A stretch of DNA of 16,404 bases from Anaerolineales bacterium (GCA_013359445.1 JABWBV010000082.1:1-16404); one strand, 5' to 3'; numbered from the stretch's first letter, positions 4,266 through 16,404 are shown. The notes: generated by a model from the sequence alone, not told the origin. Made by a program: numbers and translations.

Positions 4266-6872
4266 TCACTCACATCCGTAAAAAGTTCCCGCCACACCAT
4301 TCCAACAGACGTAATTGTTCCAGCGCCCGGAATTCCCGCCCAGCGCGTCTTTGATGGCCAGGGCCGCTCCATAGCCCCCGTTTTCCCACACGGTATCGTC
4401 CACCAACTCAAAGAGTTCGGCGTGAGAGGGCCGGTTCCCCGGACTGGTGTGGTAATCCCACCACATCCGCATCCAGTCCAACTCGTAGCCATAGTAATCA
4501 CAGACAAAGATCAGGCCGCCGGGATATTGCAGATGGCAGTATGGTTGATCATCGCCGATTTCCGCGTGATAGACGGTGTTGCTCCCGTCCCAGTAAACGA
4601 TGATCCCGTCCGGGTTCAGTTCGCTGACATCGTCGTGCGGATGATAGTTCCAGATATCCACCGCCACAAAGTGCCCCCACCCCTCCATCGAGGCACACGA
4701 ACCATATTCGACACCTTTCATCCCGTGCCCGGAACCATTGTAGGAGCAGTCGTTTTTATAATCAGCTACGGAAGCCAACAAACGGTGCCCGTATTCGTGC
4801 GCCAGGATGAATTTGCGCCGATATTGCCCGGAACTCATAAAGATTCCGGGTTGCCCGTACATATTCGTGGCACAGGATCCTTTGTCGGGATCATCCCCAC
4901 ATCCGGCTTTTTTCAGGTAATACGTGACGCCGTTCACGCCGCCGTTGAACCGTTCCTGGGCGGAATACGCCAGCATTCCCATCGAGTCGAAGTTCCACAT
5001 TTCCGGGCGGTAGATGTAATTGGGAAAAACGTTGTCAATCCACACAGCATAGTTCACGAGGTCCGAGGCGTCATTTGCCGCGGACGAAAGGTGACGCACG
5101 GTGATGTAGCCCCCCCCACTTTCAAGGCGCGCTTCGCCTTTCCAGGACGCATACACCCCAGCATTGGAAGTAGTGTTCACATAGGTACATCCATATCGGT
5201 TCAAATACCCATCGAATATTTTCACGCCGCTCTGCCAGAGGGACATTTTCGCACCGCGCGCCCGCCAACCGCTGTCTGAGGTACCGTAATCCTCGCCGAA
5301 GCCGTTATCGGTGGGGGCCACATACCACTCCAAACAGAAGGTGAAGGTGAACGTTGGCACGTCGGTTTCGGGCAATTGCACGAGGTTCAGACTCCCATCG
5401 CCGAGGCCCGCGCCGGGGGTGGGGAAGTCATCGCTGGTGCCAGGGTCCTCGGACTCTTCGATAATCACCGGGTCGCCGACTTCGTACATCACAAGGTCCG
5501 CCAACAGGGTGGGGTCTTCGCCAGAGGGGATAATTGCCTGGAGCATGGGGCCGATGGCGGCGTTGTGATCGAACTGGAGCGCGCTCGTCTGCCGGGCCAG
5601 ACCGAGTTCGTTGTACACCACAAGCTTGCCTTCAGGGTCGGTTTCTTCGGGGTGGAAGGCGAGGAAGGGGATTTCTATTTTGTAGAATTGTCCCGTTGCC
5701 AAATCCGTGACCATCACTTCGCCCATCACGCGGGCGGCTTCCCGGACTTTTTGCACGGCGGGGAGAAGTAACCCAATGAGAATCGGATCGGTTACGACTT
5801 CCCCGGCGAGGACGGTCATGGGTTCGCCTCGGTGTTCGGTTTGTTCGCCGCCGGAAAAGATCGTGAGCAGGTACTCGACTTGTTTATCGCTGTCGCTGTT
5901 ATTTGCAAAGGAAAGCAGAAGATTGTCGATATCGACCACCACACTGCTGTCATCGGTGGGGAGTTGCGGCCAGCCGAATTGCACTTCGGTGGGGATGCTT
6001 TCGTCCACGTGGGTGTCGTCATCGTCGGGGGGGGGAGGGGTTCCGCCACCGCCGCCCGCGACGAGGGGGAGAAAAACGGCGTGTTGTTCGTTCCAGCGAT
6101 AATCTTCGGTCTCGCCAAAGGTGTATCCTACCGCGGGGCCGGTGCCACTGTCGGAGGTAGCGGTTTGTTCGGCGACGGATAGCCGCATCCACAGGGGTTG
6201 ATCGGGATCGGGATTCCAGACGGTGAATACCGGGCTGACGAAGGAATACGTCCCCGGCCCTGGCAGGGTGAGGGACATGTTCTGCATCGCCCACTCCGAG
6301 ACGACCGCGGCAGTCCCCGGACAGGTTCCGGCGACCCCGCCCCAAGCCCCGCTCCGGTTCCAGTCCGCCCAAAGGTTGGCGTAGGCGACGACGCTGGTCG
6401 GGAAGGTGGCCGGAACGGTGACGGTAAAGCGCACGATCATTTCCTGGCAATGGGGCAGTTGGCGGGGGAGTTCCAGGCCGTTGTCTGCGCCGTCGTTGTT
6501 GGCGGCAAGGCCAAGGGTGCCCGTGATGATGAGGTTATTGCCGTCGGGGTCGGTGTCGATGCCGACGTCGGGCAATTCTTCGCCGCTGACGCCCGTGCCG
6601 AGGTAAAACGCGAGGGTGGTGTTATCGTGCCAGGGACCGTTGGCATCGAGGGTGGTGGGAAATTGCCCGGGGACCCCCGCATAGGCCTCGAACGCGGCCC
6701 CCGCGGAATTCGCGCTGTCGGGCGCGTCGCCGTAGTCGTGGGTGGGTGCGCCCCCACCGGGCAGGGTGAAGGGCAGTGGGGGATGATGCACCGGCGGTGG
6801 CGCGGCCGCGGTCAGGAAGGCGAACGCGATCAGCGTCACGCCCAGCCACGGGAGAAGTTGTTTGGGTTTCAT
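4266..6872 (-). CDS. Secreted zinc metallopeptidase (HEXXH zincin) with N-terminal GEVED-like domain and Gly/Pro/Asp linker
   Basis: The start is placed at the ATG at 6872 (MKPKQLLPWLGVTLIAFAFLTAAAP signal peptide) with a GGAGGT Shine-Dalgarno 5 nt upstream; the track's longer start at 6950 has no SD. The domain begins DYGDAP and ends GETEDY, the GEVED-family signature as recalled. A GGGGGTPPPPDDDD linker follows, and the C-terminal domain carries FILAHEYGHRL (HEXXH). Confidence 0.8.
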   Translation of the reverse strand: MKPKQLLPWLGVTLIAFAFLTAAAPPPVHHPPLPFTLPGGGAPTHDYGDAPDSANSAGAAFEAYAGVPGQFPTTLDANGPWHDNTTLAFYLGTGVSGEELPDVGIDTDPDGNNLIITGTLGLAANNDGADNGLELPRQLPHCQEMIVRFTVTVPATFPTSVVAYANLWADWNRSGAWGGVAGTCPGTAAVVSEWAMQNMSLTLPGPGTYSFVSPVFTVWNPDPDQPLWMRLSVAEQTATSDSGTGPAVGYTFGETEDYRWNEQHAVFLPLVAGGGGGTPPPPDDDDTHVDESIPTEVQFGWPQLPTDDSSVVVDIDNLLLSFANNSDSDKQVEYLLTIFSGGEQTEHRGEPMTVLAGEVVTDPILIGLLLPAVQKVREAARVMGEVMVTDLATGQFYKIEIPFLAFHPEETDPEGKLVVYNELGLARQTSALQFDHNAAIGPMLQAIIPSGEDPTLLADLVMYEVGDPVIIEESEDPGTSDDFPTPGAGLGDGSLNLVQLPETDVPTFTFTFCLEWYVAPTDNGFGEDYGTSDSGWRARGAKMSLWQSGVKIFDGYLNRYGCTYVNTTSNAGVYASWKGEARLESGGGYITVRHLSSAANDASDLVNYAVWIDNVFPNYIYRPEMWNFDSMGMLAYSAQERFNGGVNGVTYYLKKAGCGDDPDKGSCATNMYGQPGIFMSSGQYRRKFILAHEYGHRLLASVADYKNDCSYNGSGHGMKGVEYGSCASMEGWGHFVAVDIWNYHPHDDVSELNPDGIIVYWDGSNTVYHAEIGDDQPYCHLQYPGGLIFVCDYYGYELDWMRMWWDYHTSPGNRPSHAELFELVDDTVWENGGYGAALAIKDALGGNSGRWNNYVCWNGVAGTFYGCE

Positions 6873-6966
6873 AGCGACCTCCAAAATCTGGGGTGGGAGG
6901 TGAGCATCCCCTCTCACATCCCACCATAAGAAACTTGTAATTACGCACACGCAAAGCGTTAAGCTC

Positions 6967-7043: not shown

Positions 7044-9047
7044 TTATTTGACCAAAAGCGGCAGGAATACTTGCAGGACGTATTCAAACGCCCCGATATC
7101 ACAGTTGCCCACGCGAGGATAGCCGCGCTGATCCACCTCGTTGACCACAGTGCCCGGATCACAATAGTAGCTATCGCCCGTGTCTACCGCCGCGCTGGTC
7201 GCGTCAAGCGCCCACGTCCACGTCGGGCCACCGTTGTTTTGCACCGCGCCGACTAATCCGGCGGGCGTACTGGGTTGGTCGCCTGCCGCGTTCAGGTTGC
7301 AGTCACTCCCTTCGGAGAGGTTGTGGCCGAGCGAGATCAGGTCGACCAGTGAGACGGTAGTGCAGGTGGCAAATGGGTGAGCGCCAAAAAGCGTGTTGAC
7401 CATCCAGACTTTGCCCAGGTTGTAGAGGGCACTGCCTTGCATCCCGTTTGCCTGATTAAGGGCGAGGGTGGTGTTGGTTGTGGTGACCAGTCCGGTGGCG
7501 GCAATGTACACGCCACCCCCAAGATCGGTGGCCATGTTTTCGGCCAGGGTGGAATTGATAAAATGCAGGCTATTATCTGTCCACAAGGCCCCCCCATCAT
7601 TTCCCGACGTGTTTAAGTGGAAAAGCGTGCCACGAATGAGGTTTTCATTGTTGGGAGATGAATTGCTCTTTTGGTAAATGGCTCCGCCGCTATCGCCCGC
7701 CGAATTTTCAGAAAAAGTTGAATCTTGCAATTGCAAGCGATAGTTGTGGATGTACGCGCCGCCACCAAAGCCTTCTGCCGTGTTGTGATGGAGACGCAAA
7801 CGTGTGCCTGTAAAAAATTGCGTGTACACCGCCCCGCCATCCAGTGCAGTGTTATCCAAAAAGGTCACATCGGTTCCCTCGAACCAGGTTAAAGCATACG
7901 CCGCTCCACCTTCCGTGGCTTGATTGCTTTGGTAGGTGCCCCCCTGCTGTTCGAGATAGGACACCGCCACCGCCCCGCCATGATCCCCCGCGGAATTGAG
8001 AGAAAAATTGGTTTCCACCAGGGAGAGCGTCCCCGAGCCTTGTGCGTAAATCCCCCCACCATCCGATCCGGCTGTGTTTTCCGAAAAAGTGGTCGCTATC
8101 ACAGTCAGGGCATCTGTCGTGAACGCATCGAAAGAATGCAAACCGCCCCCGCTTCCCGTCGTGGCTTCATTGACTTCGATCAAAGAATGGGAAATCGTAA
8201 TAGTTGCCGTTTGAGCAATCAGGCCTCCGCCGTCGCCGGCCGCCGTGTTGAGGGAAATCGTACTTGAATAGATTTCCGTCACCCCGCCTGCGATCCCGAT
8301 GCCCCCCCCACTGCCTGGGGTTGAATTGGCACGGACGAGTGCATTATTCAATTTTAGATAAGCCTCTGGCCCGGTGCTATAAATGCCACCTACGACTTCC
8401 ACCCCCTCATTCAATACCACCTGGGTGCCATCCAAAATCGCGCGCCCACCTAAACCACTAAAATTGAGGTTGTACAAGCCACCCCCGTACCCCGCGGTGC
8501 CATTGCGAAGCTCGCCGCCGTACATGGTAAAGGCCCCATCCTGATTGAGAACGATGCCCCCCACCGGCCCCGCGGCAAGGGTCACATCGCCATTGATCAG
8601 CGCCAAACCCGTTATTTCCACGGTCGCGTCGATCAGGTGCAGAACCCGATCGAGAAGCGCGGCATCAATGGTGGCGGTTCCGTTCTCTGCAACGACAAAT
8701 TGCACGTCGAGTTCCGCCGAATTATCGACAATATCCAAATCACCGGTGGCGGAGGCATCTTCGTCCATTCCAGCCAATGCCAGGGTGTAGGTTTCCCCGT
8801 TTGCAAGGGTGATCACGTCCGTTTCGGTGTCACTTCCGGCGGGGCACTCGCCCAGCACAATGCCGGAGACGGTGTTCGTGTTGGCAGAGATGATGGCTTC
8901 GCGCAACGAACAAACGCCATCTATCCCGCTCACCACATCCACAGCAGTGGTTACGGTGAGGGCGGCGGCTCGGACGGGACGCGCTAGCAATGCCCCGAGC
9001 GCCATAACAGCCAGCAACGATGAAAGTGCAAAACGTTTGAACAACAT
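7044..9047 (-). CDS. Secreted right-handed parallel beta-helix (Pmp-like repeat) protein with N-terminal CSLREA domain and C-terminal choice-of-anchor Q domain
   Basis: A 667-aa ORF with an AAGGAG Shine-Dalgarno 8 nt upstream of the ATG at 9047. The signal peptide is MLFKRFALSSLLAVMALGALLARPVRAAA. The literal CSLREAI motif is present. Many GGG(I/L/V)Y/GGA(I/V/L) beta-helix repeats follow. The C-terminus DQRGYPRVGNCDIGAFE matches the choice-of-anchor Q signature. Confidence 0.85.
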   Translation of the reverse strand: MLFKRFALSSLLAVMALGALLARPVRAAALTVTTAVDVVSGIDGVCSLREAIISANTNTVSGIVLGECPAGSDTETDVITLANGETYTLALAGMDEDASATGDLDIVDNSAELDVQFVVAENGTATIDAALLDRVLHLIDATVEITGLALINGDVTLAAGPVGGIVLNQDGAFTMYGGELRNGTAGYGGGLYNLNFSGLGGRAILDGTQVVLNEGVEVVGGIYSTGPEAYLKLNNALVRANSTPGSGGGIGIAGGVTEIYSSTISLNTAAGDGGGLIAQTATITISHSLIEVNEATTGSGGGLHSFDAFTTDALTVIATTFSENTAGSDGGGIYAQGSGTLSLVETNFSLNSAGDHGGAVAVSYLEQQGGTYQSNQATEGGAAYALTWFEGTDVTFLDNTALDGGAVYTQFFTGTRLRLHHNTAEGFGGGAYIHNYRLQLQDSTFSENSAGDSGGAIYQKSNSSPNNENLIRGTLFHLNTSGNDGGALWTDNSLHFINSTLAENMATDLGGGVYIAATGLVTTTNTTLALNQANGMQGSALYNLGKVWMVNTLFGAHPFATCTTVSLVDLISLGHNLSEGSDCNLNAAGDQPSTPAGLVGAVQNNGGPTWTWALDATSAAVDTGDSYYCDPGTVVNEVDQRGYPRVGNCDIGAFEYVLQVFLPLLVK

Positions 9048-9105
9048 AAAAACAAACTCCTTATGATCAGTTTTTAGGAATTACTCACCAAGAGAGGAAA
9101 TTTCA

Positions 9106-9151
9106 GAAAAAGGATGTCAGGGGAATGCACATCTCCCCTGACATCCTTTTT
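9106..9151. terminator. Perfect 14-bp palindromic hairpin (H1) flanked by an A-run and a T-run; bidirectional terminator-like, immediately 3' of small gene A
   Basis: AAAA (9107-9110), then AGGATGTCAGGGGA (9111-9124), loop ATGCACATC, then TCCCCTGACATCCT (9134-9147), then TTTT (9148-9151). It abuts the stop codon of the small gene at 9151-9153 and lies upstream of the 9047 start of the beta-helix gene. Confidence 0.65.
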
Positions 9152-9381
9152 CAAGGTTTACCCCTCTGTGCGGGAGTAATTACGTTAATTTTTTCCGTCT
9201 CTTCTGAGCCGGACGTTTGTTGATGCAAAAACAAAAATAACCGTTCCAGGTCTTCAAAATGCCATTCTTCCCCGGTCAAGACGTGGCGCGCCGTGGCCCG
9301 CCAGGGTGCGTCTTCCGCGGAACGCCACAAGCGGACGAGATAGGATTGATACATGGAGGAAGAAAGATTTCTTTCGGACAT
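9151..9381 (-). CDS. Small Trp/charged-rich conserved hypothetical protein, paralog A (76 aa)
   Basis: The start is ATG 9381 (MSERNLSSSMYQSYLVRLWR...) with a GGGAG Shine-Dalgarno 6 nt upstream; the track's start at 9393 is 4 codons longer. A paralog lies at 13282-13473 with the identical core EEWHFEDLERLFLFLH. That 16-aa identical block carries 7 synonymous and 0 nonsynonymous nucleotide differences, indicating purifying selection on this frame. The opposite-strand ORF 9259..9474 is not conserved in copy B. Confidence 0.7.
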   Translation of the reverse strand: MSERNLSSSMYQSYLVRLWRSAEDAPWRATARHVLTGEEWHFEDLERLFLFLHQQTSGSEETEKINVITPAQRGKP

Positions 9382-9385
9382 GGAG
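9205..9385. repeat. Copy A of an approximately 180-bp duplicated segment (direct repeat, about 75-80% identity, ungapped) carrying the small-protein gene
   Basis: It aligns without gaps to 13300-13480 at a constant offset of 4095 bp. For example, tgcaaaaacaaaaa[t/c]aaccg[t/c]tcca... and gcggacgagataggattgata occur in both copies. Confidence 0.7.
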
Positions 9386-9490
9386 ACTCCCATCTTACAA
9401 AATCCCCGTCACAAAAACGTAGCAAGCCCCCGCGCGTCCGCCTTCCCCGCCCGTTTCGAGAAGGAGCAGGGTAGTACTTGCGCGCTAGTT

Positions 9491-9496
9491 TATAAT
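9491..9496 (+). promoter_or_regulatory. Consensus -10 hexamer TATAAT placed 6 nt upstream of the DinB-like ATG; possible leaderless transcript
   Basis: TATAAT at 9491-9496 is followed by 6 nt (TTCAGC) and the ATG at 9503. No Shine-Dalgarno is present and no good -35 was found. Confidence 0.3.
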
Positions 9497-9502
9497 TTCA
9501 GC

Positions 9503-10021
9503 ATGAAAAAAACCATTTCTACCGAACCCACTCCAGAAAATATTCAGCACATTCTGCACATCCTTGCGGAAGTTCCAGCACACCTGGACAGACTCCGGCA
9601 AGGCATGGACGAACAGACTCTGAGAGAACCGCTGGCCCCGGACGAACGATCCTTCCATCAAATTCTAGCCCACCTCATCCACTGTGAAGCCCGCACCTTT
9701 GAAACGATCACCCTGGCCCTGCTCACTCATGAACCAGTCCTTTTCCCCATTCACCCGGAACGCGATTTCGGAAAGTTGTTCCCCTTCGAGCACCAACCCT
9801 TCTCCGATTTACTCGCCTACTTCAAACTCCGCCGCGCGGTGCTGTTGCCCGTGCTCAGTGGGCTGAACGAGAAAAAGTGGGCACGCGTGGTCCAGCAAGC
9901 AGGCAAACAACGGAAGGAGTCGGTGTACTGGCAAGCGCGCGTCCTCGCCCTGCACGAATGGGAACACGTGGAAGAGATCACCAAAAAGTTAGGGAGCGCC
10001 CCGTCCGTACTGAATCGGTAG
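9503..10021 (+). CDS. DinB/YfiT-like (DinB_2 superfamily) putative metal-dependent four-helix-bundle protein
   Basis: The start is placed at ATG 9503 (MKKTISTEP...); the longer track ORF from 9353 would overlap small gene A and lacks support. His-rich motifs are HQILAHLIHCE and the C-terminal LHEWEH (HxxxH), typical of the DinB_2 His triad. The protein is 172 aa. Confidence 0.65.
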   Translation: MKKTISTEPTPENIQHILHILAEVPAHLDRLRQGMDEQTLREPLAPDERSFHQILAHLIHCEARTFETITLALLTHEPVLFPIHPERDFGKLFPFEHQPFSDLLAYFKLRRAVLLPVLSGLNEKKWARVVQQAGKQRKESVYWQARVLALHEWEHVEEITKKLGSAPSVLNR

Positions 10022-10055
10022 CCTGCTTGCGTCCTGCGCCCCCGTTTGTACCGGG

Positions 10056-10061
10056 TACAAT
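10056..10061 (+). promoter_or_regulatory. -10-like hexamer TACAAT 6 nt upstream of the regulator ATG; possible leaderless start
   Basis: TACAAT at 10056-10061 is followed by AACCTC and the ATG at 10068. No Shine-Dalgarno is present. This is the same geometry as the DinB-like gene. Confidence 0.25.
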
Positions 10062-10067
10062 AACCTC

Positions 10068-13000
10068 ATGCCTGCCCCGCGCCTCGCGCTCACCCTCTTC
10101 GGGCCGTTTGAAGCCCTGGTCAACGCCCAGCCCCTCGCTTTTGCCACCGATAAAATCCGTGCGCTCCTCGCCTACCTCGCCCTCGAACCGGACAAACCCC
10201 ACCGCCGCGAAACCCTCGCCGCCCTGCTCTGGCCCGATTATCCCGACGAGACCGCGCTCCGCAACCTGCGCCAATCGGTGTACCGGCTCCGCCAAACGCT
10301 GGCCGACGCCGATCCCGACCTGCCCGCCCGCCTGATCACCCAAACCCGCCCAACCATCACTCTGCACGCCGCCGCGCTGACCACGGACACCGCCCGGTTT
10401 ACCGCCCTCGTGCAGGAGAGCCAAATTGCGCCTGATCCGCGCCCCCCTTTGACCGAATTGACCGCTCTCTACCGGGGCGAACTGCTGAAAGGGTTCGCCT
10501 TGTCCGACGCCTACGCCTTCGACGAATGGTTGAGCATCCAGCGCGAAATTTTCCACCAGCAAACGCTCGACGCCTTCACTCGGCTGATGTCGCGTCAGGA
10601 AAACGACCCCGACGCCCTGCTAACCACCGCGCCGCGCCTGCTGGCCCTGGCCCCCTGGCACGAAGAAACCCACCGCCAGATCATGCGCGCCCACTTGCAA
10701 AAAGGCAACCGCACGCAAGCCCTTGCCCAATACCAGACTCTCCGCACGACCCTGCTCCGCGACCTGGGCGTAGAACCCGCCCCCGCTACCACAGCCCTGC
10801 TCGCCCGCATTCAAACCGAAGCGCCTTACCCCGAAAACGCTCAAACCGCACCCATTCCCCCCCGCCCGACCCTGCGGAACTTCCCCGCGCCGCTCACCCC
10901 CCTCATCGGACGCAAAGCCGAACTGGACGCGCTCACTCAGATGCTGTCCGACCCCGCTTGCCGTCTGGTCACGCTGATCGGGCCGGGCGGGATGGGGAAA
11001 ACGCGTCTCGCGACCGAAACCGCGCGCCGCCTGTCGGCCCAGCCTCATCGGTTCACGGATGGGTTGTACTTCGTGCCGCTCACCCAACTCGAACAGGGGG
11101 AGTTGCTCCTCGCCACGGTGGCGCAAAACCTGGGCCTTACGCTTTCCGCCACCGCCGAGCCTCGCCGAGAACTCTTCCAGTATCTGCAAAGCCACCCCTC
11201 CCTGCTTCTCCTCGACAATTTTGAGCATCTCCTGCCCGACGCCGCGCCCATGCTGAGTGAACTTCTCGCCGCCGCGCCGGAGACCACGCTGTTGGTGACC
11301 TCCCGCGACCCGCTTGCCATTCAGGGCGAGTGGCTTTATCCGCTCGAAGGGCTGTCTTATCTTCCCGACCCGCGTGAAACTGACGCCCCGCTCGAACGCC
11401 CCGCCCCGCAACTGTTCATCCAAACTGCCCGCCGATACCGCCCGTCATTCGATCCCCCGGCCCACGCGGAATCCATCCTGGCGATCTGCCGCCTGACCGA
11501 TGGCTTGCCCCTTGCCCTCGAAATGGCCGCCGCGTGGATGCGCGCGTATTCCACCCAAGAAATCGCCGAACGCATTACCCAAAGCCTAGATTTTCTCACC
11601 AACCCCTATCGGGACGCGCCCGCCCGACAACGGAGCCTGCGCGCGATTTTCACTTCGACGTGGGAACAGCTCGCGCCGGAACCCCGCGCGGTGCTCGCCG
11701 CCCTGTCGGTGTTCCGGGGCGGGTTCACCGTCGCCGCCGCGTTAAACGTCGCCCAGGCTGGGGTTCTCGATCTGGCCGTGCTGGTCGAAAAATCCTTCCT
11801 GCGCCGCGCTGAACACCGTTACGATTTGCATGAACTGGTGCGCCAGTTTGCCGCCGAAAAACTAGGGGAGATGGGCCACGCGCCGGTGATTTTTGCCCGC
11901 CATGCGAACTTTTATCTCGCCACCCTGGCCCAACAAGCCCCTGGCTTGAACGGGCCATCCCCGCAGGAGGCGTTGTCGGCAATGCGCCAGGAGTTGGACA
12001 ATGTGCGCCACGCGTGGGCCTGGGCGGTCGCGAGGGCGGAGGTGCGGTTGCTCGAAATGGGACTGGAGGGGTTGGTACAGTTTTTTATGTTGACAGGGAA
12101 CCTTGCGGAGGGGGAAAACGCGGTCAAAAAGGCCCGCGCCGCTGTGTCGGCCCTGCCCGCGGCCCCCACGCCACTTCAAAGTCAGTTAGAGAGTTCGCTG
12201 GCGTGGTTCCGCGTGGGGTTGGGGAATCATCTGGCCGCGTTAGAAAATATTCAGGCCGCGCTGTCCCTTGCGGGGCAACATCTCCCCAGCCGCGCCCGTG
12301 CCCTTTCGATTTACGGGTGGGCGTTGCAAACAACCGGGAAGTATGCCGAAGCGGAAACGGCGTTGGAAGAGGCGATTACCCTGTTTGACCAAATGGGCGA
12401 TCTGTTTCAAAAATCTTTTGCGCTGATTCGCCTGGGTGGGGTTTATTGGCGGAGGCGGGATTTTGAGAAGACGCGGATGTATTATCAACGCTCGTTGCAA
12501 ATCGAACAAACGCTGGGAAACAAGCGAGGGATGACGCGCGCGTTCGGCGGGCTGGGGTTGGTGTATTTAAATCTGGAAAAATACCCGGAGGCGCTGGAAG
12601 GGTTGGGGCGGGCGCTGGAATTGGATCGGGAATTGGGAAATCTGGCAGGGGTGTCGCGCCATTTGGGGAACATTGGCGCGGCGCACTTGATTTTGGGTCA
12701 GTTTGAGCAGGCGCGGGCGTGTTTTGAGGAGGCGGCGGAAATGGATGCCCGGGCGGGGAATAAAGTGACGCTGGGCATTTGGAAGGAGAACCTGGGGATG
12801 GTGTTTATGCATCTCCAGCAGACGGATAAGGCGCGGCAGTGTTTTGATGCGTCCATTGGGTTGTTTCGAGAGGCGGGCAATCGGTTTAACTTGCCGGAGC
12901 CGCTGTTGGGCAAGGCGGATTTGCTGTTGGCGCGGGAGGAAGATGATGAAGCAAAAACGCTGATCGAGGAGGGGGTGCGCCTTTCGGACGAACTCAACCG

Positions 13001-13274
13001 CAAGGATACGCAGACCCGTGGGCGGCTGTTGCTCGCTCGTTGGCTCGCCCGGACCGATCCTGCCACCGCCCGCCAACAGTTGGAGACGATGCTGGCCGCC
13101 CTCGGTGATTTGCCCGCCGAGGAGACCCGCGCGCAGATTTATTTCGAACTCTGGCGCACGGATGGGCGCGAGGAGGATGCGGGGCGCGCGTTGGACCTGT
13201 ATCGGCGATGTTTGGGGAGGGCGCAGAAGTTTGAGTATCGGGTGAGGGTGGAGGCGTTGGAGCGTAAAACGTAG
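10068..13274 (+). CDS. AfsR/SARP-family large transcriptional regulator: OmpR-type winged-helix DNA-binding domain + BTAD, NB-ARC/STAND P-loop NTPase, C-terminal TPR repeats
   Basis: A 1068-aa ORF. The N-terminus LTLFGPFEALVNAQPL...KIRALLAYLAL is SARP-like. The BTAD region reads YRGELLKGF...DEWL...RLLALAPWHEETHRQIMRAHLQKGNRTQALAQYQTLRTTLLRDLGVEP. Walker A is LIGPGGMGKTRLA and Walker B is LLLLDNFEHLL. TPR-like repeats run through the C-terminal 450 aa. Confidence 0.9.
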   Translation: MPAPRLALTLFGPFEALVNAQPLAFATDKIRALLAYLALEPDKPHRRETLAALLWPDYPDETALRNLRQSVYRLRQTLADADPDLPARLITQTRPTITLHAAALTTDTARFTALVQESQIAPDPRPPLTELTALYRGELLKGFALSDAYAFDEWLSIQREIFHQQTLDAFTRLMSRQENDPDALLTTAPRLLALAPWHEETHRQIMRAHLQKGNRTQALAQYQTLRTTLLRDLGVEPAPATTALLARIQTEAPYPENAQTAPIPPRPTLRNFPAPLTPLIGRKAELDALTQMLSDPACRLVTLIGPGGMGKTRLATETARRLSAQPHRFTDGLYFVPLTQLEQGELLLATVAQNLGLTLSATAEPRRELFQYLQSHPSLLLLDNFEHLLPDAAPMLSELLAAAPETTLLVTSRDPLAIQGEWLYPLEGLSYLPDPRETDAPLERPAPQLFIQTARRYRPSFDPPAHAESILAICRLTDGLPLALEMAAAWMRAYSTQEIAERITQSLDFLTNPYRDAPARQRSLRAIFTSTWEQLAPEPRAVLAALSVFRGGFTVAAALNVAQAGVLDLAVLVEKSFLRRAEHRYDLHELVRQFAAEKLGEMGHAPVIFARHANFYLATLAQQAPGLNGPSPQEALSAMRQELDNVRHAWAWAVARAEVRLLEMGLEGLVQFFMLTGNLAEGENAVKKARAAVSALPAAPTPLQSQLESSLAWFRVGLGNHLAALENIQAALSLAGQHLPSRARALSIYGWALQTTGKYAEAETALEEAITLFDQMGDLFQKSFALIRLGGVYWRRRDFEKTRMYYQRSLQIEQTLGNKRGMTRAFGGLGLVYLNLEKYPEALEGLGRALELDRELGNLAGVSRHLGNIGAAHLILGQFEQARACFEEAAEMDARAGNKVTLGIWKENLGMVFMHLQQTDKARQCFDASIGLFREAGNRFNLPEPLLGKADLLLAREEDDEAKTLIEEGVRLSDELNRKDTQTRGRLLLARWLARTDPATARQQLETMLAALGDLPAEETRAQIYFELWRTDGREEDAGRALDLYRRCLGRAQKFEYRVRVEALERKT

Positions 13275-13281
13275 AACCAGA

Positions 13282-13473
13282 TCAAGAATCCCCCCTCTCC
13301 TTTCCCCCCGTCCGCTCGTGCAAAAACAAAAACAACCGCTCCAAATCTTCAAAATGCCACTCCTCCCCGGTCAGCACGTGCCGGACTGTCGCCCGCCAGC
13401 ACACTTCTTCTGAAGGACGCCAAAGGCGGACGAGATAGGATTGATAGGTGGAGGAAGCGTGGAGAGGGGACAA
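13282..13473 (-). CDS. Small Trp/charged-rich conserved hypothetical protein, paralog B (63 aa; apparent TTG start)
   Basis: (L/M)SPLHASSTYQSYLVRLWRPSEEVCWRATVRHVLTGEEWHFEDLERLFLFLHERTGGKERGDS. It has no in-frame ATG. The TTG at 13473 has AAAGG 7 nt upstream, and the frame is open upstream only to 13552 with no other start codon. Its stop lies 7 bp from the regulator stop on the opposite strand. Confidence 0.55.
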   Translation of the reverse strand: MSPLHASSTYQSYLVRLWRPSEEVCWRATVRHVLTGEEWHFEDLERLFLFLHERTGGKERGDS

Positions 13474-13480
13474 GAAAAAA
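13300..13480. repeat. Copy B of the approximately 180-bp duplicated segment carrying the small-protein gene
   Basis: Ungapped alignment to 9205-9385 at a 4095-bp offset, in the same orientation. Confidence 0.7.
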
Positions 13481-13579: not shown

Positions 13580-13618
13580 GATGGTCGAAATGACGGATGG
13601 GAGAAGATGGGGGCTGAT

Positions 13619-13660
13619 GGACACGGAAAACCGAATGGTCAATCCGAGTCTTCCGTGTCC
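13619..13660 (-). promoter_or_regulatory. Perfect 10-bp stem-loop (GGACACGGAA / TTCCGTGTCC, 22-nt loop) downstream of the FG-GAP gene stop
   Basis: Seen directly in the sequence. There is no adjacent U-tract on either strand, so it is not a canonical intrinsic terminator. It could be a rho-dependent or attenuator structure, or part of a structured RNA. Confidence 0.4.
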
Positions 13661-13687
13661 ATCTGAGTTCGAGTCTGCTTTTCTGGC

Positions 13688-15427
13688 CTACCGCCCTAAT
13701 GCCCAACCAAACCGGTCATTCATCTCGGAGTCATCGGGAATGTCTGTCGATTCCTGATACCAGATTTGATTATCCACGGCGGTTAACCCGCTCCCCGATC
13801 CATATATGACATGGAGCGCCCCCGCGTCTGTCTCCGTGACCGCGTTCACCAAAACATCCTCATACGGAGCGCCCACCACCAGGTCGGTGAACCCATCCCC
13901 GTTGTAATCTCCGGCGGTCAAGGTGTAGCCGAACAAATCGTCCACTTCCGGCGCCCCCGTCACCAGGCCTTGCGCCCAAAGGTCTTGTCCGTCCGTGGAG
14001 AGCGTGGAGCCATTGCTATACAGCACCTGCACAAATCCCTGGTTCAACTGATCCCCATCCTGGAAGGGCACACCCACCGCCAGATCATCCACCCCATCAC
14101 CGTTGAAGTCGGCGGCGATCAACGCCTGTCCAAGTCGGTCCAGCGTCTCTGGCGCCCCCAAAATCCCGTCCAACCCCTGATAAAGAATCATATCGTTCGC
14201 GCCGGACAGCCCTCCTCCAATCGCCGAGCCGAACAACACATGCACGGCCCCCGCGTCGGTTTCATCGCCCACGCCATTATTCACATCCTCACCGGGCACA
14301 CCCACCACGAGGTCACCGGCACCGTTTCCATCAAAATCGCCCGCGGCCAACACCGTGCCGAAGCTATCATGATCTTCCGGGTTCCCTTGCACGCTATTTT
14401 CACCCTGTCGCCAGGCCGTTTCGCCCAAGAGCGAGATACCCGCGTCACTGCCCTGGAACACCATCACCGCCCCGACATTATCCACCCCCAATATGTCGTA
14501 ACCGGGAATGCCCACCGCCAGATCATCGAACCCATCGCCATCGAAATCTTCCGAAGCTAGGGCCGCCCCGAAATAATCGCCACTCGCCGGTTCCAAATCT
14601 ACCGATTCCAACCCGTGGTGGAAAATGATGTCGTCCAAGGCTTGCAAACCATCCGCCGAGCCATAAATGACATTCACCGCGCCCATCTCGGTAATCCCGT
14701 CCGATTCCAGGTCTTCTTTGGACGAACCCACCGCCAAATCCGCGAATCCGTCCCCGTTGAAGTCGCCGCTGATGAGCGCTTCCCCAAACCGGTCGCCCTC
14801 CTCCGCAAGGCCTCCAATCCCGTTCAAACTCTGACCGAAGGATTGTGTCCCGTTGTCGGTCAAACCCGTGCCCGGATACCCATAAATGACATCCACCTGC
14901 CCGACGTTGGTCATTCCATCCCGCCCCTCGCCAGGGGAACTGACCGCCAGATCGCTGGTCCCGTCCCCGTTAAAGTCACCTATCGCGAGGGCGAACCCAA
15001 ACTGCTCGTCCGGCAGGCTGACCCCAAGGATATTTTCCTGCGTCCAGAACTGATTGTTCTCCGCGTTCAGGCCATCTGCCGTGCCGTACAGGATTTGAAT
15101 TGCACCATTATCCGCCACCAACCCGTTGCGGTCTTCGGTCGGAATCCCGATGGCGAGATCGGCGTACCCGTCCCCGTTGAAGTCCACCAACCCGTTCGGG
15201 TCAGCGGGCGAACAGTCCAGCGTCCCCCCGCCAATCGAAGCAGGGCTGTCGCTGGAAATCGGGTTCCCGGCTCGTATAACAAGCGGCAGGTAAACCTGAT
15301 AACAGGTCGTCCCCCCCGCTACTGCAGGAGCAGGAGCCGCAAATGATCTCCCGTTCATGACAAAGGCTATCGCGATGAACAGGAAGAGGCTGATAATTTT
15401 TATACCGTTGAAAATTTTGTTTACCAT
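13688..15427 (-). CDS. Secreted FG-GAP repeat (integrin-alpha-like beta-propeller) protein
   Basis: The start is ATG 15427 (MVNKIFNGIKIISLFLFIAIAFVMNGRSFA|AP signal peptide) with an AGGAGA Shine-Dalgarno 7 nt upstream; the track start at 15481 lacks an SD. At least 7 FG-GAP repeats are present, e.g. DFNGDGYADLAIG, GDFNGDGTSDLAV, GDFNGDGFADLAVG, EDFDGDGFDDLAVG, GDFDGNGAGDLVVG, ADFNGDGVDDLAVG and GDYNGDGFTDLVVG. Confidence 0.85.
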   Translation of the reverse strand: MVNKIFNGIKIISLFLFIAIAFVMNGRSFAAPAPAVAGGTTCYQVYLPLVIRAGNPISSDSPASIGGGTLDCSPADPNGLVDFNGDGYADLAIGIPTEDRNGLVADNGAIQILYGTADGLNAENNQFWTQENILGVSLPDEQFGFALAIGDFNGDGTSDLAVSSPGEGRDGMTNVGQVDVIYGYPGTGLTDNGTQSFGQSLNGIGGLAEEGDRFGEALISGDFNGDGFADLAVGSSKEDLESDGITEMGAVNVIYGSADGLQALDDIIFHHGLESVDLEPASGDYFGAALASEDFDGDGFDDLAVGIPGYDILGVDNVGAVMVFQGSDAGISLLGETAWRQGENSVQGNPEDHDSFGTVLAAGDFDGNGAGDLVVGVPGEDVNNGVGDETDAGAVHVLFGSAIGGGLSGANDMILYQGLDGILGAPETLDRLGQALIAADFNGDGVDDLAVGVPFQDGDQLNQGFVQVLYSNGSTLSTDGQDLWAQGLVTGAPEVDDLFGYTLTAGDYNGDGFTDLVVGAPYEDVLVNAVTETDAGALHVIYGSGSGLTAVDNQIWYQESTDIPDDSEMNDRFGWALGR

Positions 15428-15474
15428 GATGATTTCTCCTAAAAAAATGATGGATTGTTGTCGTAGCGCGGGGA

Positions 15475-15665
15475 CCTTCATCCCCCGGCGAGCTGAATCA
15501 GCACAGGAAGACCGCCAGCACCACGCGTGCCTCCCATTCCAGCCCCGCCCGGCGATAATGTCGCCAGGCTACAACACGATGCCCGTTCAAACGGGCTTTT
15601 CCAGCCGGATTCATCCGGCGTCGTTGGTAGCCGGGGGATTTATCCCCCGGCGAGCCAAATGAGCC
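15475..15665. promoter_or_regulatory. Intergenic region (globin-to-FG-GAP) with a thrice-repeated motif TCATCC(CCC)GGCG and embedded palindromes; candidate operator/promoter region
   Basis: R1 TCATCCCCCGGCGAGCTGAATCAGC (15478-15502) and R2 TTATCCCCCGGCGAGCCAAATGAGC (15640-15664) match at 21 of 25 positions. A partial third copy TTCATCCGGCG lies inside the palindrome CCGGATTCATCCGG (15606-15619). R2 overlaps the palindrome CCGGGGGAT-TT-ATCCCCCGG (15634-15653). Confidence 0.4.
15581..15600 (+). terminator. Small terminator-like hairpin with U-tract on the plus strand (GCCCG-TTCAAA-CGGGC-TTTT)
   Basis: A 5-bp GC stem followed by TTTT, oriented for a plus-strand transcript. No convincing plus-strand gene lies upstream, so its function is uncertain. 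Confidence 0.25.
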
Positions 15666-15672
15666 ATGCTTT

Positions 15673-16086
15673 TTACGCGGGCTGATACGCCGCTTCTTGC
15701 ATCAACCCGCTCAACAACGCAAACGCGTTTTCCCACGCGGATTCCACTTCGGGCGTGTACGCCGCGCCCAGGCCTTTTTCCAGCGTCCACAACAACGCCG
15801 CGCCGACGGTGGCGTAATGTTCGGGGCGCACGCCGTACCCCGCGTGGCGTTGGCCCAGGCTTTGCACGGCGGGGATGATCCGTTCGGGGTTGTCCAACCC
15901 GATCACGACCAGTTTGAGGGCGGACATCAGTTTTTCGCCCTGGGTTTTCAAATCCGCTTTGAACAACGGGCGCAGGTTGGGGTCCAGTTCAAACAGCCGT
16001 CCGTAAAACAGCGAGGCCGCGGTGTCCGCAATGGGTTCCACCTGGGCAAAAGATTGTTGGAGGGTGAGAATTTCTTGTGTGTTCAT
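15673..16086 (-). CDS. Single-domain bacterial hemoglobin (3/3 globin, Vitreoscilla Hb / flavohemoglobin N-domain-like)
   Basis: A 137-aa ORF with an AAGGAG Shine-Dalgarno 5 nt upstream of the ATG at 16086. FYGRLFELDPNLRPLF, IIPAVQSLGQRHAGYGVRPEHYATVGAALLWTL and ESAWENAF align with the VHb/Hmp globin fold, including the proximal His in the HAGYGV context. Confidence 0.85.
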   Translation of the reverse strand: MNTQEILTLQQSFAQVEPIADTAASLFYGRLFELDPNLRPLFKADLKTQGEKLMSALKLVVIGLDNPERIIPAVQSLGQRHAGYGVRPEHYATVGAALLWTLEKGLGAAYTPEVESAWENAFALLSGLMQEAAYQPA

Positions 16087-16265
16087 TTTTAGCTCCTTTT
16101 GATTTCACCGAAAGCCCTACGACGCTTTTCGTTGTAGCATCCTGAGCGGAGGCTTTGCGAAGTCGAAGGATGCGGTGTCATTCATTTCAATTTCCCCATC
16201 TTACGCCCCCACCGTCAGCGCCTCGTCGCGGGAACGTAGGCGGAAAGACAAAAAAACCTCGCTTT

Positions 16266-16404
16266 TTCAAATGGATTAGTACCCAGGTTCGTAGTGCCGC
16301 ACCCCAGTGCGGTCCGGCACTGACGTGCCTCACTACAAACTGGATATTTCAGATGGCGTTGCACCCAGGTTCGTAGTCCCGCACGCCAGTGCGGTCCGGC
16401 ACTG
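16266..16404. repeat. Two copies of an 82-bp-period tandem repeat with nested palindromes, truncated by the window end
   Basis: 16281-16322 and 16363-16404 match at 40 of 42 bp (ACCCAGGTTCGTAGT[G/C]CCGCAC[C/G]CCAGTGCGGTCCGGCACTG). Weaker similarity extends upstream (TTCA[A/G]ATGG...). Nested inverted repeats are GTGCCG...CGGCAC and CCGCAC...GTGCGG. Confidence 0.6.

Follow-up and report, generated by a model that had tools for sequence, protein, structure and literature searches.

A contig of 16,404 nucleotides (nt) from an Anaerolineales metagenome-assembled genome (MAG), in the following referred to as the window, contains on its minus strand two small open reading frames (ORFs) of related sequence, between which a DinB-like gene and a large transcriptional regulator are encoded on the plus strand. 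Copy A (9151–9381, minus strand, ATG start, HUU38_08425) codes for a protein of 76 amino acids and is oriented divergently from the unit formed by the DinB gene and the regulator, and copy B (13282–13473, minus strand, TTG start, HUU38_08440) codes for a paralogue of 63 amino acids located 3′ of an FG-GAP gene. Both are listed as hypothetical proteins in GenBank, with the same starts as in an initial annotation made from the sequence alone. The question raised by this locus is what the two small proteins are and in which way, if any, they are tied to the regulator between them. The answer considered probable here is that A and B are paralogues in an unnamed family of the Chloroflexota, the genes of which form modules with regulators of the SARP type; A would be the canonical member of such a module, B an orphan, and the small protein a feedback partner of the regulator.

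Copies A and B are genuine protein-coding genes under purifying selection. A repeat search within the window recovers a direct repeat between 9224–9362 and 13319–13457 (139 nt, 81% identity, ungapped, offset 4095). The gap-free alignment at this offset given in the initial annotation is thereby reproduced, and the repeat is direct as described there, with a length of about 140–150 nt instead of 180 bp. Similarity ends at the borders of the conserved coding core, both flanks being at about 25%, which is chance level, and no exact run is longer than 21 nt. At the protein level, identity is 78% over 54 amino acids. Within the 16-residue block EEWHFEDLERLFLFLH the two copies differ by 7.0 synonymous and 0 nonsynonymous changes, exactly the count reported before. 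The ratio of nonsynonymous to synonymous substitution rates (dN/dS, Nei-Gojobori) is 0.10–0.12 in the minus-strand frame, the sole frame behaving as coding and the one previously proposed to be under selection; in the remaining five frames it is 0.25–2.8 with stops present, and the opposite-strand frame is interrupted in copy B, as had been claimed. For each of the 15 pairwise comparisons of A, B and four orthologues, dN/dS is 0.02–0.14 (0.02–0.10 for copy A versus its orthologues, 0.07 for copy B versus its orthologue in locus L047), while dS between A and B amounts to about 1.1. The start of copy A fits the alignment with six close homologues, and the family profile described below matches this copy with E=8e-30; the TTG start of copy B is aligned to the ATG of the L047 orthologue. 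No N-terminal hydrophobic signal is seen in the translations of A and B. An ORF and Pfam scan of 9151–13473 finds no transposase or integrase, which together with the chance-level flanks speaks against an origin as an insertion sequence (IS) fragment.

When a profile of close homologues is used in an exhaustive HMMER search, 1,784 representatives of 50%-identity clusters are obtained at E≤1e-3, mostly 60–100 residues long, and a profile of 83 diverse members yields 2,608 clusters at 90% identity, all of them annotated as 'hypothetical' and none with a Pfam domain. A and B themselves match nothing in Pfam and NCBIfam at E≤1, nor any PADLOC or PHROGs model. The homology search proposed in the initial annotation hence delineates a large, unnamed family outside Pfam and NCBIfam that co-occurs with SARP regulators; no publication on Chloroflexota SARPs or their modules, on the protein motif or on the family itself was found in the searchable literature. 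The family consensus reads Y-x-[SA]-Y-L-[VL]-R-L-W-[RQ]-x7-W-R-A-x5-x-T-G-E-x3-F-x2-L-E-x-L-F-x-F-L-x2-Q-T, with Arg17, Trp19 and Phe42 invariant. Of the widespread family described earlier, the W-R-A...TGE...F..LE.LF.FL pattern and the occurrence in Chloroflexi hold, whereas the supposed cyanobacterial branch does not, no such member being present among the named or titled true matches. Every named source and every true match among species-representative genomes belongs to the Chloroflexota (Anaerolineae, Caldilineaceae, Ardenticatenaceae, Chloroflexia and Thermoflexales), and several copies occur per genome, as exemplified by loci L008 and L033 from one MAG.

In an AlphaFold2 model of copy A based on a 96-sequence alignment, the core residues ~11–50 are predicted with a local distance difference score (pLDDT) above 90, and the tails are disordered. 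The predicted topology is β-β-β-α, with strands at 14–19, 28–33 and 39–42 and a helix at 45–56, and it is without a solved homologue; among the known domains considered for comparison are the small β-β-β-α domains of UPF0339/YegP (DUF1508). The general build of the family is a folded core of about 45 residues with a variable acidic or polar tail. By strand alternation, the conserved residues Leu15, Arg17 and Trp19 should face the side of the sheet opposite to the helix, and this face would be a candidate binding or dimer surface. Natural tandem two-domain members exist (proteins P0158–P0167; 7001–7402 in L048–L050) and are modelled as two β3-α units with a predicted template modelling score (pTM) of 0.66. 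The tandem forms of L048–L050 are paired with a regulator composed of a winged helix-turn-helix (wHTH) domain, a BTAD domain and a PD40 propeller, and four CCACGTTTT-type boxes are located upstream of them. Such tandem forms hint that the small protein probably acts as a dimer.

Several other identities were considered and rejected. A fragment of the regulator is ruled out, as comparison of the family profile with the SARP protein by hhalign finds no relation. A precursor of a ribosomally synthesized and post-translationally modified peptide (RiPP) of the cyclophane/triceptide HaaA type is disfavored by the lack of a maturase in the window and in related loci and by the conservation and confident folding of the whole core, in agreement with the initial annotation, which had set the classic RiPP precursors aside. 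A secreted signaling peptide of the RRNPP type does not fit the absence of an N-terminal signal, the conserved folded domain and the fact that TPR repeats are dispensable in the partners, and an anti-phage defence or phage protein is not indicated by any PADLOC or PHROGs match for A or B.

The regulator (10068–13274, plus strand) is built from an OmpR-type wHTH domain followed by BTAD, NB-ARC and TPR domains (Pfam E values of 6e-7 for Trans_reg_C, 2e-19 for BTAD, 1.5e-11 for NB-ARC and 7e-28 for TPR_12) and presumably activates the promoter of copy A; this domain order and the preceding DinB_2 gene are as stated in the initial annotation. It scores 101.6 bits against the NCBIfam AfsR equivalog NF053617 (cut-off 1430) and 100.8 bits against the HaaT TPR model (cut-off 1125), and among the PADLOC and PHROGs models generic TPR and weak IetA matches alone are obtained. 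Judged by these comparisons, it is AfsR-like in architecture and not an AfsR orthologue.

Related loci (numbered L001 onwards) were gathered with a degenerate DNA pattern and filtered with the family hidden Markov model (HMM), chance matches in unrelated phyla being kept as negative controls, and were scored with this HMM as well as with the N-terminal 260 and the next 380 residues of the window regulator. The immediate divergent neighbor of the small gene is SARP-like in about 26 of the 32 assessable loci. These comprise 18 of 23 genome-derived loci (L001, L002, L003, L005, L011, L013, L014, L021, L024, L025, L027, L028, L029, L030, L031, L033, L039 and L042), furthermore L048, and seven of the eight metagenome loci with enough upstream sequence (L053, L061, L068, L081, L092, L103 and L109). 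Head-to-head pairing extends to distant members (L002, L003/L004 and L005). What stays constant in the partner is wHTH+BTAD, whereas the remainder varies: the sensor part is NB-ARC+TPR in the window, L003 and L013, BTAD is combined with NB-ARC only in L005 and with AAA_16 and a separate TPR gene in L002, and a PD40 β-propeller follows BTAD in L048. Distances between the small proteins and those between the adjacent SARP domains are correlated (Mantel r=0.565, with 0 of 2000 permutations as high), and they are so even without the orthologues of the window (r=0.39, again 0 of 2000). By this measure, the modules diversify as pairs.

For copy A a SARP-box-type promoter is predicted at 9392–9425 (minus strand), consisting of two boxes with an 11-nt period and a −10 hexamer. 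Box 1 (TTGCTACG, 9425–9418) and box 2 (TTGTGACG, 9414–9407) start 11 nt apart; box 2 is followed by 9 nt, the hexamer TAAGAT (9397–9392) and, 10 nt further on, the ATG. From the distance between TAAGAT and ATG, the predicted 5′ untranslated region of copy A is very short or absent. A 40-nt block, CTTGCTACGTTTTTGTGACG..GA..TTGTAAGAT, is invariant among copy A, L045, L046 and L001, the last being more distant, and is surrounded by DNA that diverges. SARP targets are known to contain direct repeats spaced by 11 or 22 bp, the 3′ repeat lying 8 bp away from the −10 element, with the box overlapping the −35 position; the afs box bound by AfsR is made up of two 11-bp repeats that overlap −35, and each protomer of a side-by-side dimer contacts the first 8 bp of one repeat (PMC10936776). 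The copy A promoter displays the same 11-nt repeat spacing, 9 nt to the −10 hexamer, and no match to a sigma-70 −35/−10 pair on its strand. The window contains two matches to ACG-N8-ACG-N9-TANNNT, as opposed to an expectation of 0.03. Since the promoter geometry corresponds to the published SARP rule and a SARP is encoded divergently next to it, we infer that this regulator activates copy A through the predicted boxes.

The same geometry recurs upstream of family genes at unrelated loci, with two to four boxes per promoter at an 11-nt period, the box sequences differing by locus (TTGTGACG, GATCG, ATCACG, ATAACG, TAAAGAG, GTTGATA, CCACG). Direct repeats at offset 11 (at least 7 of 8 positions) are present in 12 of 25 upstream regions, while shuffles average 0.69 and never exceed 4; at other offsets 0–3 regions are found, except for offset 22 with 4, and none of the 15 chance-match control loci contains an offset-11 repeat. 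Repeats with at least 6 of 8 matching positions that end 8–9 nt before TAnnnT are found in 17 of 37 cases on the strand of the small gene versus 2 of 37 on the other strand (shuffles average 0.77, with at most 5). Together with the adjacency counts, this bears out the tie to SARP/STAND regulators of the AfsR-afsS kind that had been suggested initially.

Two minor features of these promoters may be added. In L055 and L058 the boxes take the form CGTGATCG-ttt-TGTGATCG-N9-TATGCT; L058 and L006 have no SARP nearby, and the upstream sequence of L055 is too short to be assessed. The presence of boxes in SARP-less loci suggests that some family copies are controlled in trans. On the two strands of the intergenic region in the window, TAAGAT-N10-ATG precedes copy A (9379–9397, minus strand) and TATAAT-N6-ATG precedes the DinB gene (9485–9505, plus strand), which suggests that both divergent mRNAs are leaderless or nearly so in this organism.

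The module proposed from these observations would consist of a SARP activator (wHTH+BTAD with a variable sensor) transcribed in one direction and the small gene transcribed in the other, the promoter of the latter carrying two to four direct repeats with an 11-bp period in place of the −35 element and ending 8–9 bp before −10. Upon switching on of its NB-ARC/TPR part, the regulator 10068–13274 would bind TTGCTACG-N3-TTGTGACG as a side-by-side dimer and turn on copy A and, in relatives, also the genes for secreted proteins behind it. The small protein might in turn influence the cognate SARP domain or the complex of SARP and RNA polymerase, either as a feedback co-activator or as an anti-activator. 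This last step is the weakest of the scheme; such feedback is nevertheless judged the most likely role, because the modules co-diversify as pairs and the SARP domain is the only constant part of the partner. A more far-reaching version, which we regard as tentative, is that SARP DNA-binding domains have the small proteins as their obligate, cognate partners and that both together form a transcription switch of two proteins not recognized before in Chloroflexota. Each SARP would induce its own β3-α adaptor, which would lock the module on or off via the wHTH-BTAD dimer or the interface between SARP and RNA polymerase, and dozens of such insulated copies per genome would control secreted and surface proteins.

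Several points weigh against the proposed module. An adjacent SARP is absent in about one locus in five (L006, L008, L032, L034 and L058), and boxes are nonetheless present in L006 and L058. The strict repeat threshold is passed by only about half of the loci, and 11-bp direct repeats next to −10 are typical of OmpR/PhoB-type regulators too, so that the binder could be another wHTH protein. Co-diversification is to be expected for any co-inherited neighbors and is no proof of a physical interaction. A strong putative terminator behind copy A in the window gives this copy a link to the downstream genes unlike that of its relatives. Finally, the evidence is comparative throughout.

The main rival is a small protein that acts purely as a trans effector like AfsS, on other regulators or on RNA polymerase and without any link to its own SARP. 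The resemblance to AfsR-AfsS of Streptomyces on which this alternative draws is of the following kind: the regulator has the same wHTH+BTAD+NB-ARC+TPR architecture, its main adjacent target encodes a protein of about 60–75 residues, and two 11-bp direct repeats overlap the −35 position near −10. Orphan copies without an adjacent regulator (copy B, L006, L008) would suit a protein acting in trans as well. The small proteins, however, are unrelated. AfsS, with about 63 residues, contains a T-x2-D-N-H-M-P-x2-P-type motif three times, and a β3-α fold is not predicted for it, whereas the proteins described here are folded β3-α domains with the signature YLVRLW...WRA...TGE...F..LE.LF.FL. No DNHMP-like repeats are found in the translations of A and B, which places them outside the AfsS family. 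Further differences are the divergent arrangement of the gene pair as opposed to the tandem one, the occurrence in Chloroflexota and not in Actinomycetota, a regulator scoring far below the AfsR equivalog cut-off, and many paralogous modules per genome in place of one global pair. The pair in the window is, as far as such a comparison goes, analogous and not homologous to AfsR-afsS. Several copies per genome that co-diversify with their neighboring SARPs are moreover explained more easily by cognate pairing, and we therefore allow the trans effector a real but limited chance. The comparison with AfsS had initially been attached to copy B, immediately 3′ of the regulator gene; this assignment has to be transferred to copy A, which is divergent from the SARP and has the SARP-box promoter that copy B lacks.

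A lesser rival is that the small protein works for the genes following its own instead of the regulator, as a chaperone, assembly, export or immunity factor for large secreted proteins. In L001, from another Anaerolineales MAG, the SARP regulator is divergent from the small gene, which is followed by a PMP-like gene, a gene for an 874-residue protein, GH57 and Band_7; this order matches the window from 9381 down to 44, without a DinB gene and without a second copy. The next gene abuts the small gene in L001 and L046, and in L001 the small-gene stop overlaps the PMP-like start. Across the loci, the same-strand downstream genes mostly encode large signal-peptide proteins (PMP/β-helix proteins, trypsin-like proteases, giant repeat proteins). 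These genes are, however, mutually unrelated and also include those for an ABM protein, EF-hand proteins, a sugar transferase and membrane proteins, and even among close relatives the gene following copy A differs, being PMP-like in the window, L046 and L001, whereas a GEVED-domain gene follows directly in the very close L045 and L110. In the window itself, a perfect 20-bp hairpin (9091–9167, minus strand) overlaps the stop codon of copy A and is flanked by an A-tract and a U-tract (RNA folding energy −47.6 kcal/mol, z=−7.8, a stability reached by none of 200 shuffles). A simple terminator scan did not list it; it is probably an intrinsic terminator of the bidirectional type between copy A and the PMP-like gene, and copy A is therefore probably a separate short transcript in the window. 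With the small protein furthermore lacking a signal peptide, a helper function for the downstream genes appears unlikely.

The third alternative concerns the boxes rather than the protein: they could be bound by another response regulator of the OmpR/PhoB type or by the small protein itself, with the SARP being regulated in parallel. In the pho boxes of PhoB/OmpR proteins, 11-bp direct repeats likewise replace the −35 element and are occupied head-to-tail by a wHTH activator, such sites being common to this wHTH class; there, though, the activator is a phosphorylated response regulator, whereas here BTAD is combined with a STAND or propeller sensor. The boxes of L058 and L006 without an adjacent SARP would be accounted for. 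On the other hand, the SARP is the only wHTH protein consistently encoded beside the boxes (about 80% of the loci), and the box sequences vary by locus in the way expected of diverged SARPs with their own sites. We consider a different binder quite unlikely.

Still less can be said for a small protein that is sensed, as ligand or target, by the TPR domain of the STAND regulator, an option raised at first. Neighboring genes often encode interacting proteins, and the window regulator carries a long TPR domain. Since the partners keep wHTH+BTAD yet differ in, or do not have, the sensor domain (L005 is without TPR, L048 has the PD40 propeller instead, and both retain the small gene and boxes), this role is disfavored and must be regarded as very improbable.

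Copy B does not fit the canonical arrangement. No 11-nt boxes are found upstream of it; a degenerate TCG-N8-ACG-N9-TAAAGG at this position is absent in the orthologous locus L047 and was discounted as a SARP box. The L047 orthologue keeps the 3′ end of the FG-GAP gene, an intervening hairpin and the position of the start codon (ATG), and the gene behind it, which had been considered as a possible diverged SARP C-terminus, encodes a DinB_2 protein and not a SARP. The hairpin (13616–13663, minus strand) is located upstream of copy B, 25 nt beyond the stop codon of the FG-GAP gene; it folds with −28.3 kcal/mol (z=−5.7), its outer stem is conserved in L047, no U-tract follows it, and no Rfam family matches. 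Across copy A, DinB and the whole SARP, L110 and the window share 93.5% identity; the SARP stop codon is precisely where this similarity breaks off, and beyond the SARP 3′ end L110 has no family member. The position of copy B is accordingly not conserved, because it is absent beside the L110 SARP and its L047 orthologue is followed by DinB_2. As judged from these comparisons, copy B is an old, still-selected orphan paralogue belonging with the upstream FG-GAP gene, and its place beside the 3′ end of the regulator is an accident of the arrangement in this genome.

The notion put forward initially, that the direct repeats bracket the 3.9-kb DinB and SARP cassette and could excise, mobilize or duplicate it, can hardly be upheld: apart from two similar segments in the same orientation 4095 nt apart and a second, more divergent family copy at the SARP 3′ end of L013, by which that SARP is likewise flanked, the evidence speaks against it, namely the restriction of similarity to the coding core with its short exact runs and high dS, the lack of an integrase or transposase between the copies, the break of synteny at the SARP stop in L110, and the separate orthologue of copy B in L047, which retains the FG-GAP gene. 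The L013 layout is an independent case, as DUF5667 and not FG-GAP precedes its second copy, and homology to the window was rejected.

In the place of copy B, L110 contains a non-coding stretch (1600–2150) with several palindromes, GGAACGGCGTTCC / GAACGCCGTTCC, adjoining a gene with a faint match to an IS200-type transposase. This stretch may mark a rearrangement breakpoint.

Compared with the cluster-situated SARPs ActII-ORF4, DnrI and RedD and their heptameric direct-repeat promoters, the module has in common the 11- or 22-bp repeats, the distance of about 8 bp to the −10 element and the presumed activation of adjacent operons (PMC10936776); these SARPs, however, serve antibiotic clusters, whereas here a conserved small protein and varied secreted proteins are the predicted targets. 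No biosynthetic genes were seen in the operons adjoining the small genes at the loci examined. The principle of an activator and its target is ordinary; new is a large, unnamed and sharply defined module. To our knowledge, SARP/AfsR-type regulators have been studied almost only in actinomycetes, as antibiotic switches, and their targets elsewhere are essentially unknown. The small gene provides a specific, testable target for the whole class of Chloroflexota SARPs, and its promoter rule allows regulons to be predicted from sequence, for example through a second box promoter located before a globin gene in the window. With at least 2,600 protein clusters the family merits a definition of its own. 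The comparison with AfsR-AfsS also suggests that the combination of a large SARP and a neighboring gene for a small protein represents a general design that arose at least twice, the small proteins being unrelated, and this recurrence opens the long-unclear role of AfsS-like proteins to comparative study.

The second putative SARP-box promoter (16198–16240, minus strand) is the other of the only two window matches to ACG-N8-ACG-N9-TANNNT. It contains three ..YKACG boxes (CCTACG, GCGACG, CTGACG) with an 11-nt period, followed by 9 nt and TAAGATGGG, and reads cctACG-ttcccgcgACG-aggcgctgACG-gtgggggcg-TAAGATggg. CTACG, TGACG and TAAGATGGG are common to this site and the copy A promoter, and the repeat search finds the −10 regions to be similar as well. 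Downstream of it lie the globin gene (15673–16086, minus strand, Pfam Globin 3e-16) and, between globin and copy B, the FG-GAP repeat gene (13688–15481, minus strand, Pfam FG-GAP 2e-60). Globin, FG-GAP and copy B might be transcribed together as a single unit, and if the second promoter is real, the regulon of the regulator would reach copy B indirectly.

Of the remaining genes around copy A, the DinB_2-family gene (9503–10021, plus strand) is the first gene of the regulator transcription unit. Its start was placed at the ATG 9503, as read from the sequence and the ORF translation, and the Pfam match (DinB_2, E=3.6e-11) refers to the ORF 9353–10021. The gene is present in the close relatives L045, L046 and L110 and missing from the syntenic L001 and from all distant loci; from this distribution it is a lineage-specific insertion outside the conserved module. 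On the other side of copy A, the Chlam_PMP-repeat gene (7044–9047) is a present-or-absent gene at a fixed site beside the 9091–9167 hairpin. The GEVED gene (4266–6950, minus strand) is the most conserved of the neighborhood, with 92–95% nucleotide identity to L045 and L110, and its product, a secreted protein of 894 residues, contains an HEYGH (HExxH) motif besides the GEVED domain and may be a zinc metalloprotease.

No Rfam family is found in the window, so its hairpins match no known RNA element. At the contig end, two copies of a 68-nt element (16255–16322 and 16337–16404) are 84% identical and repeated with an 82-nt period; the element contains the GC-rich palindrome GTGCCGCAC..CAGTGCGGTCCGGCACTG, has the look of a repetitive extragenic palindromic (REP) or other small repeat, and has no Rfam match. 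Two related 35-nt segments (15468–15502 and 15630–15664) with the palindrome GCCGGGGGAT..ATCCCCCGGC flank the intergenic region between globin and FG-GAP and may be terminator or REP-type hairpins.

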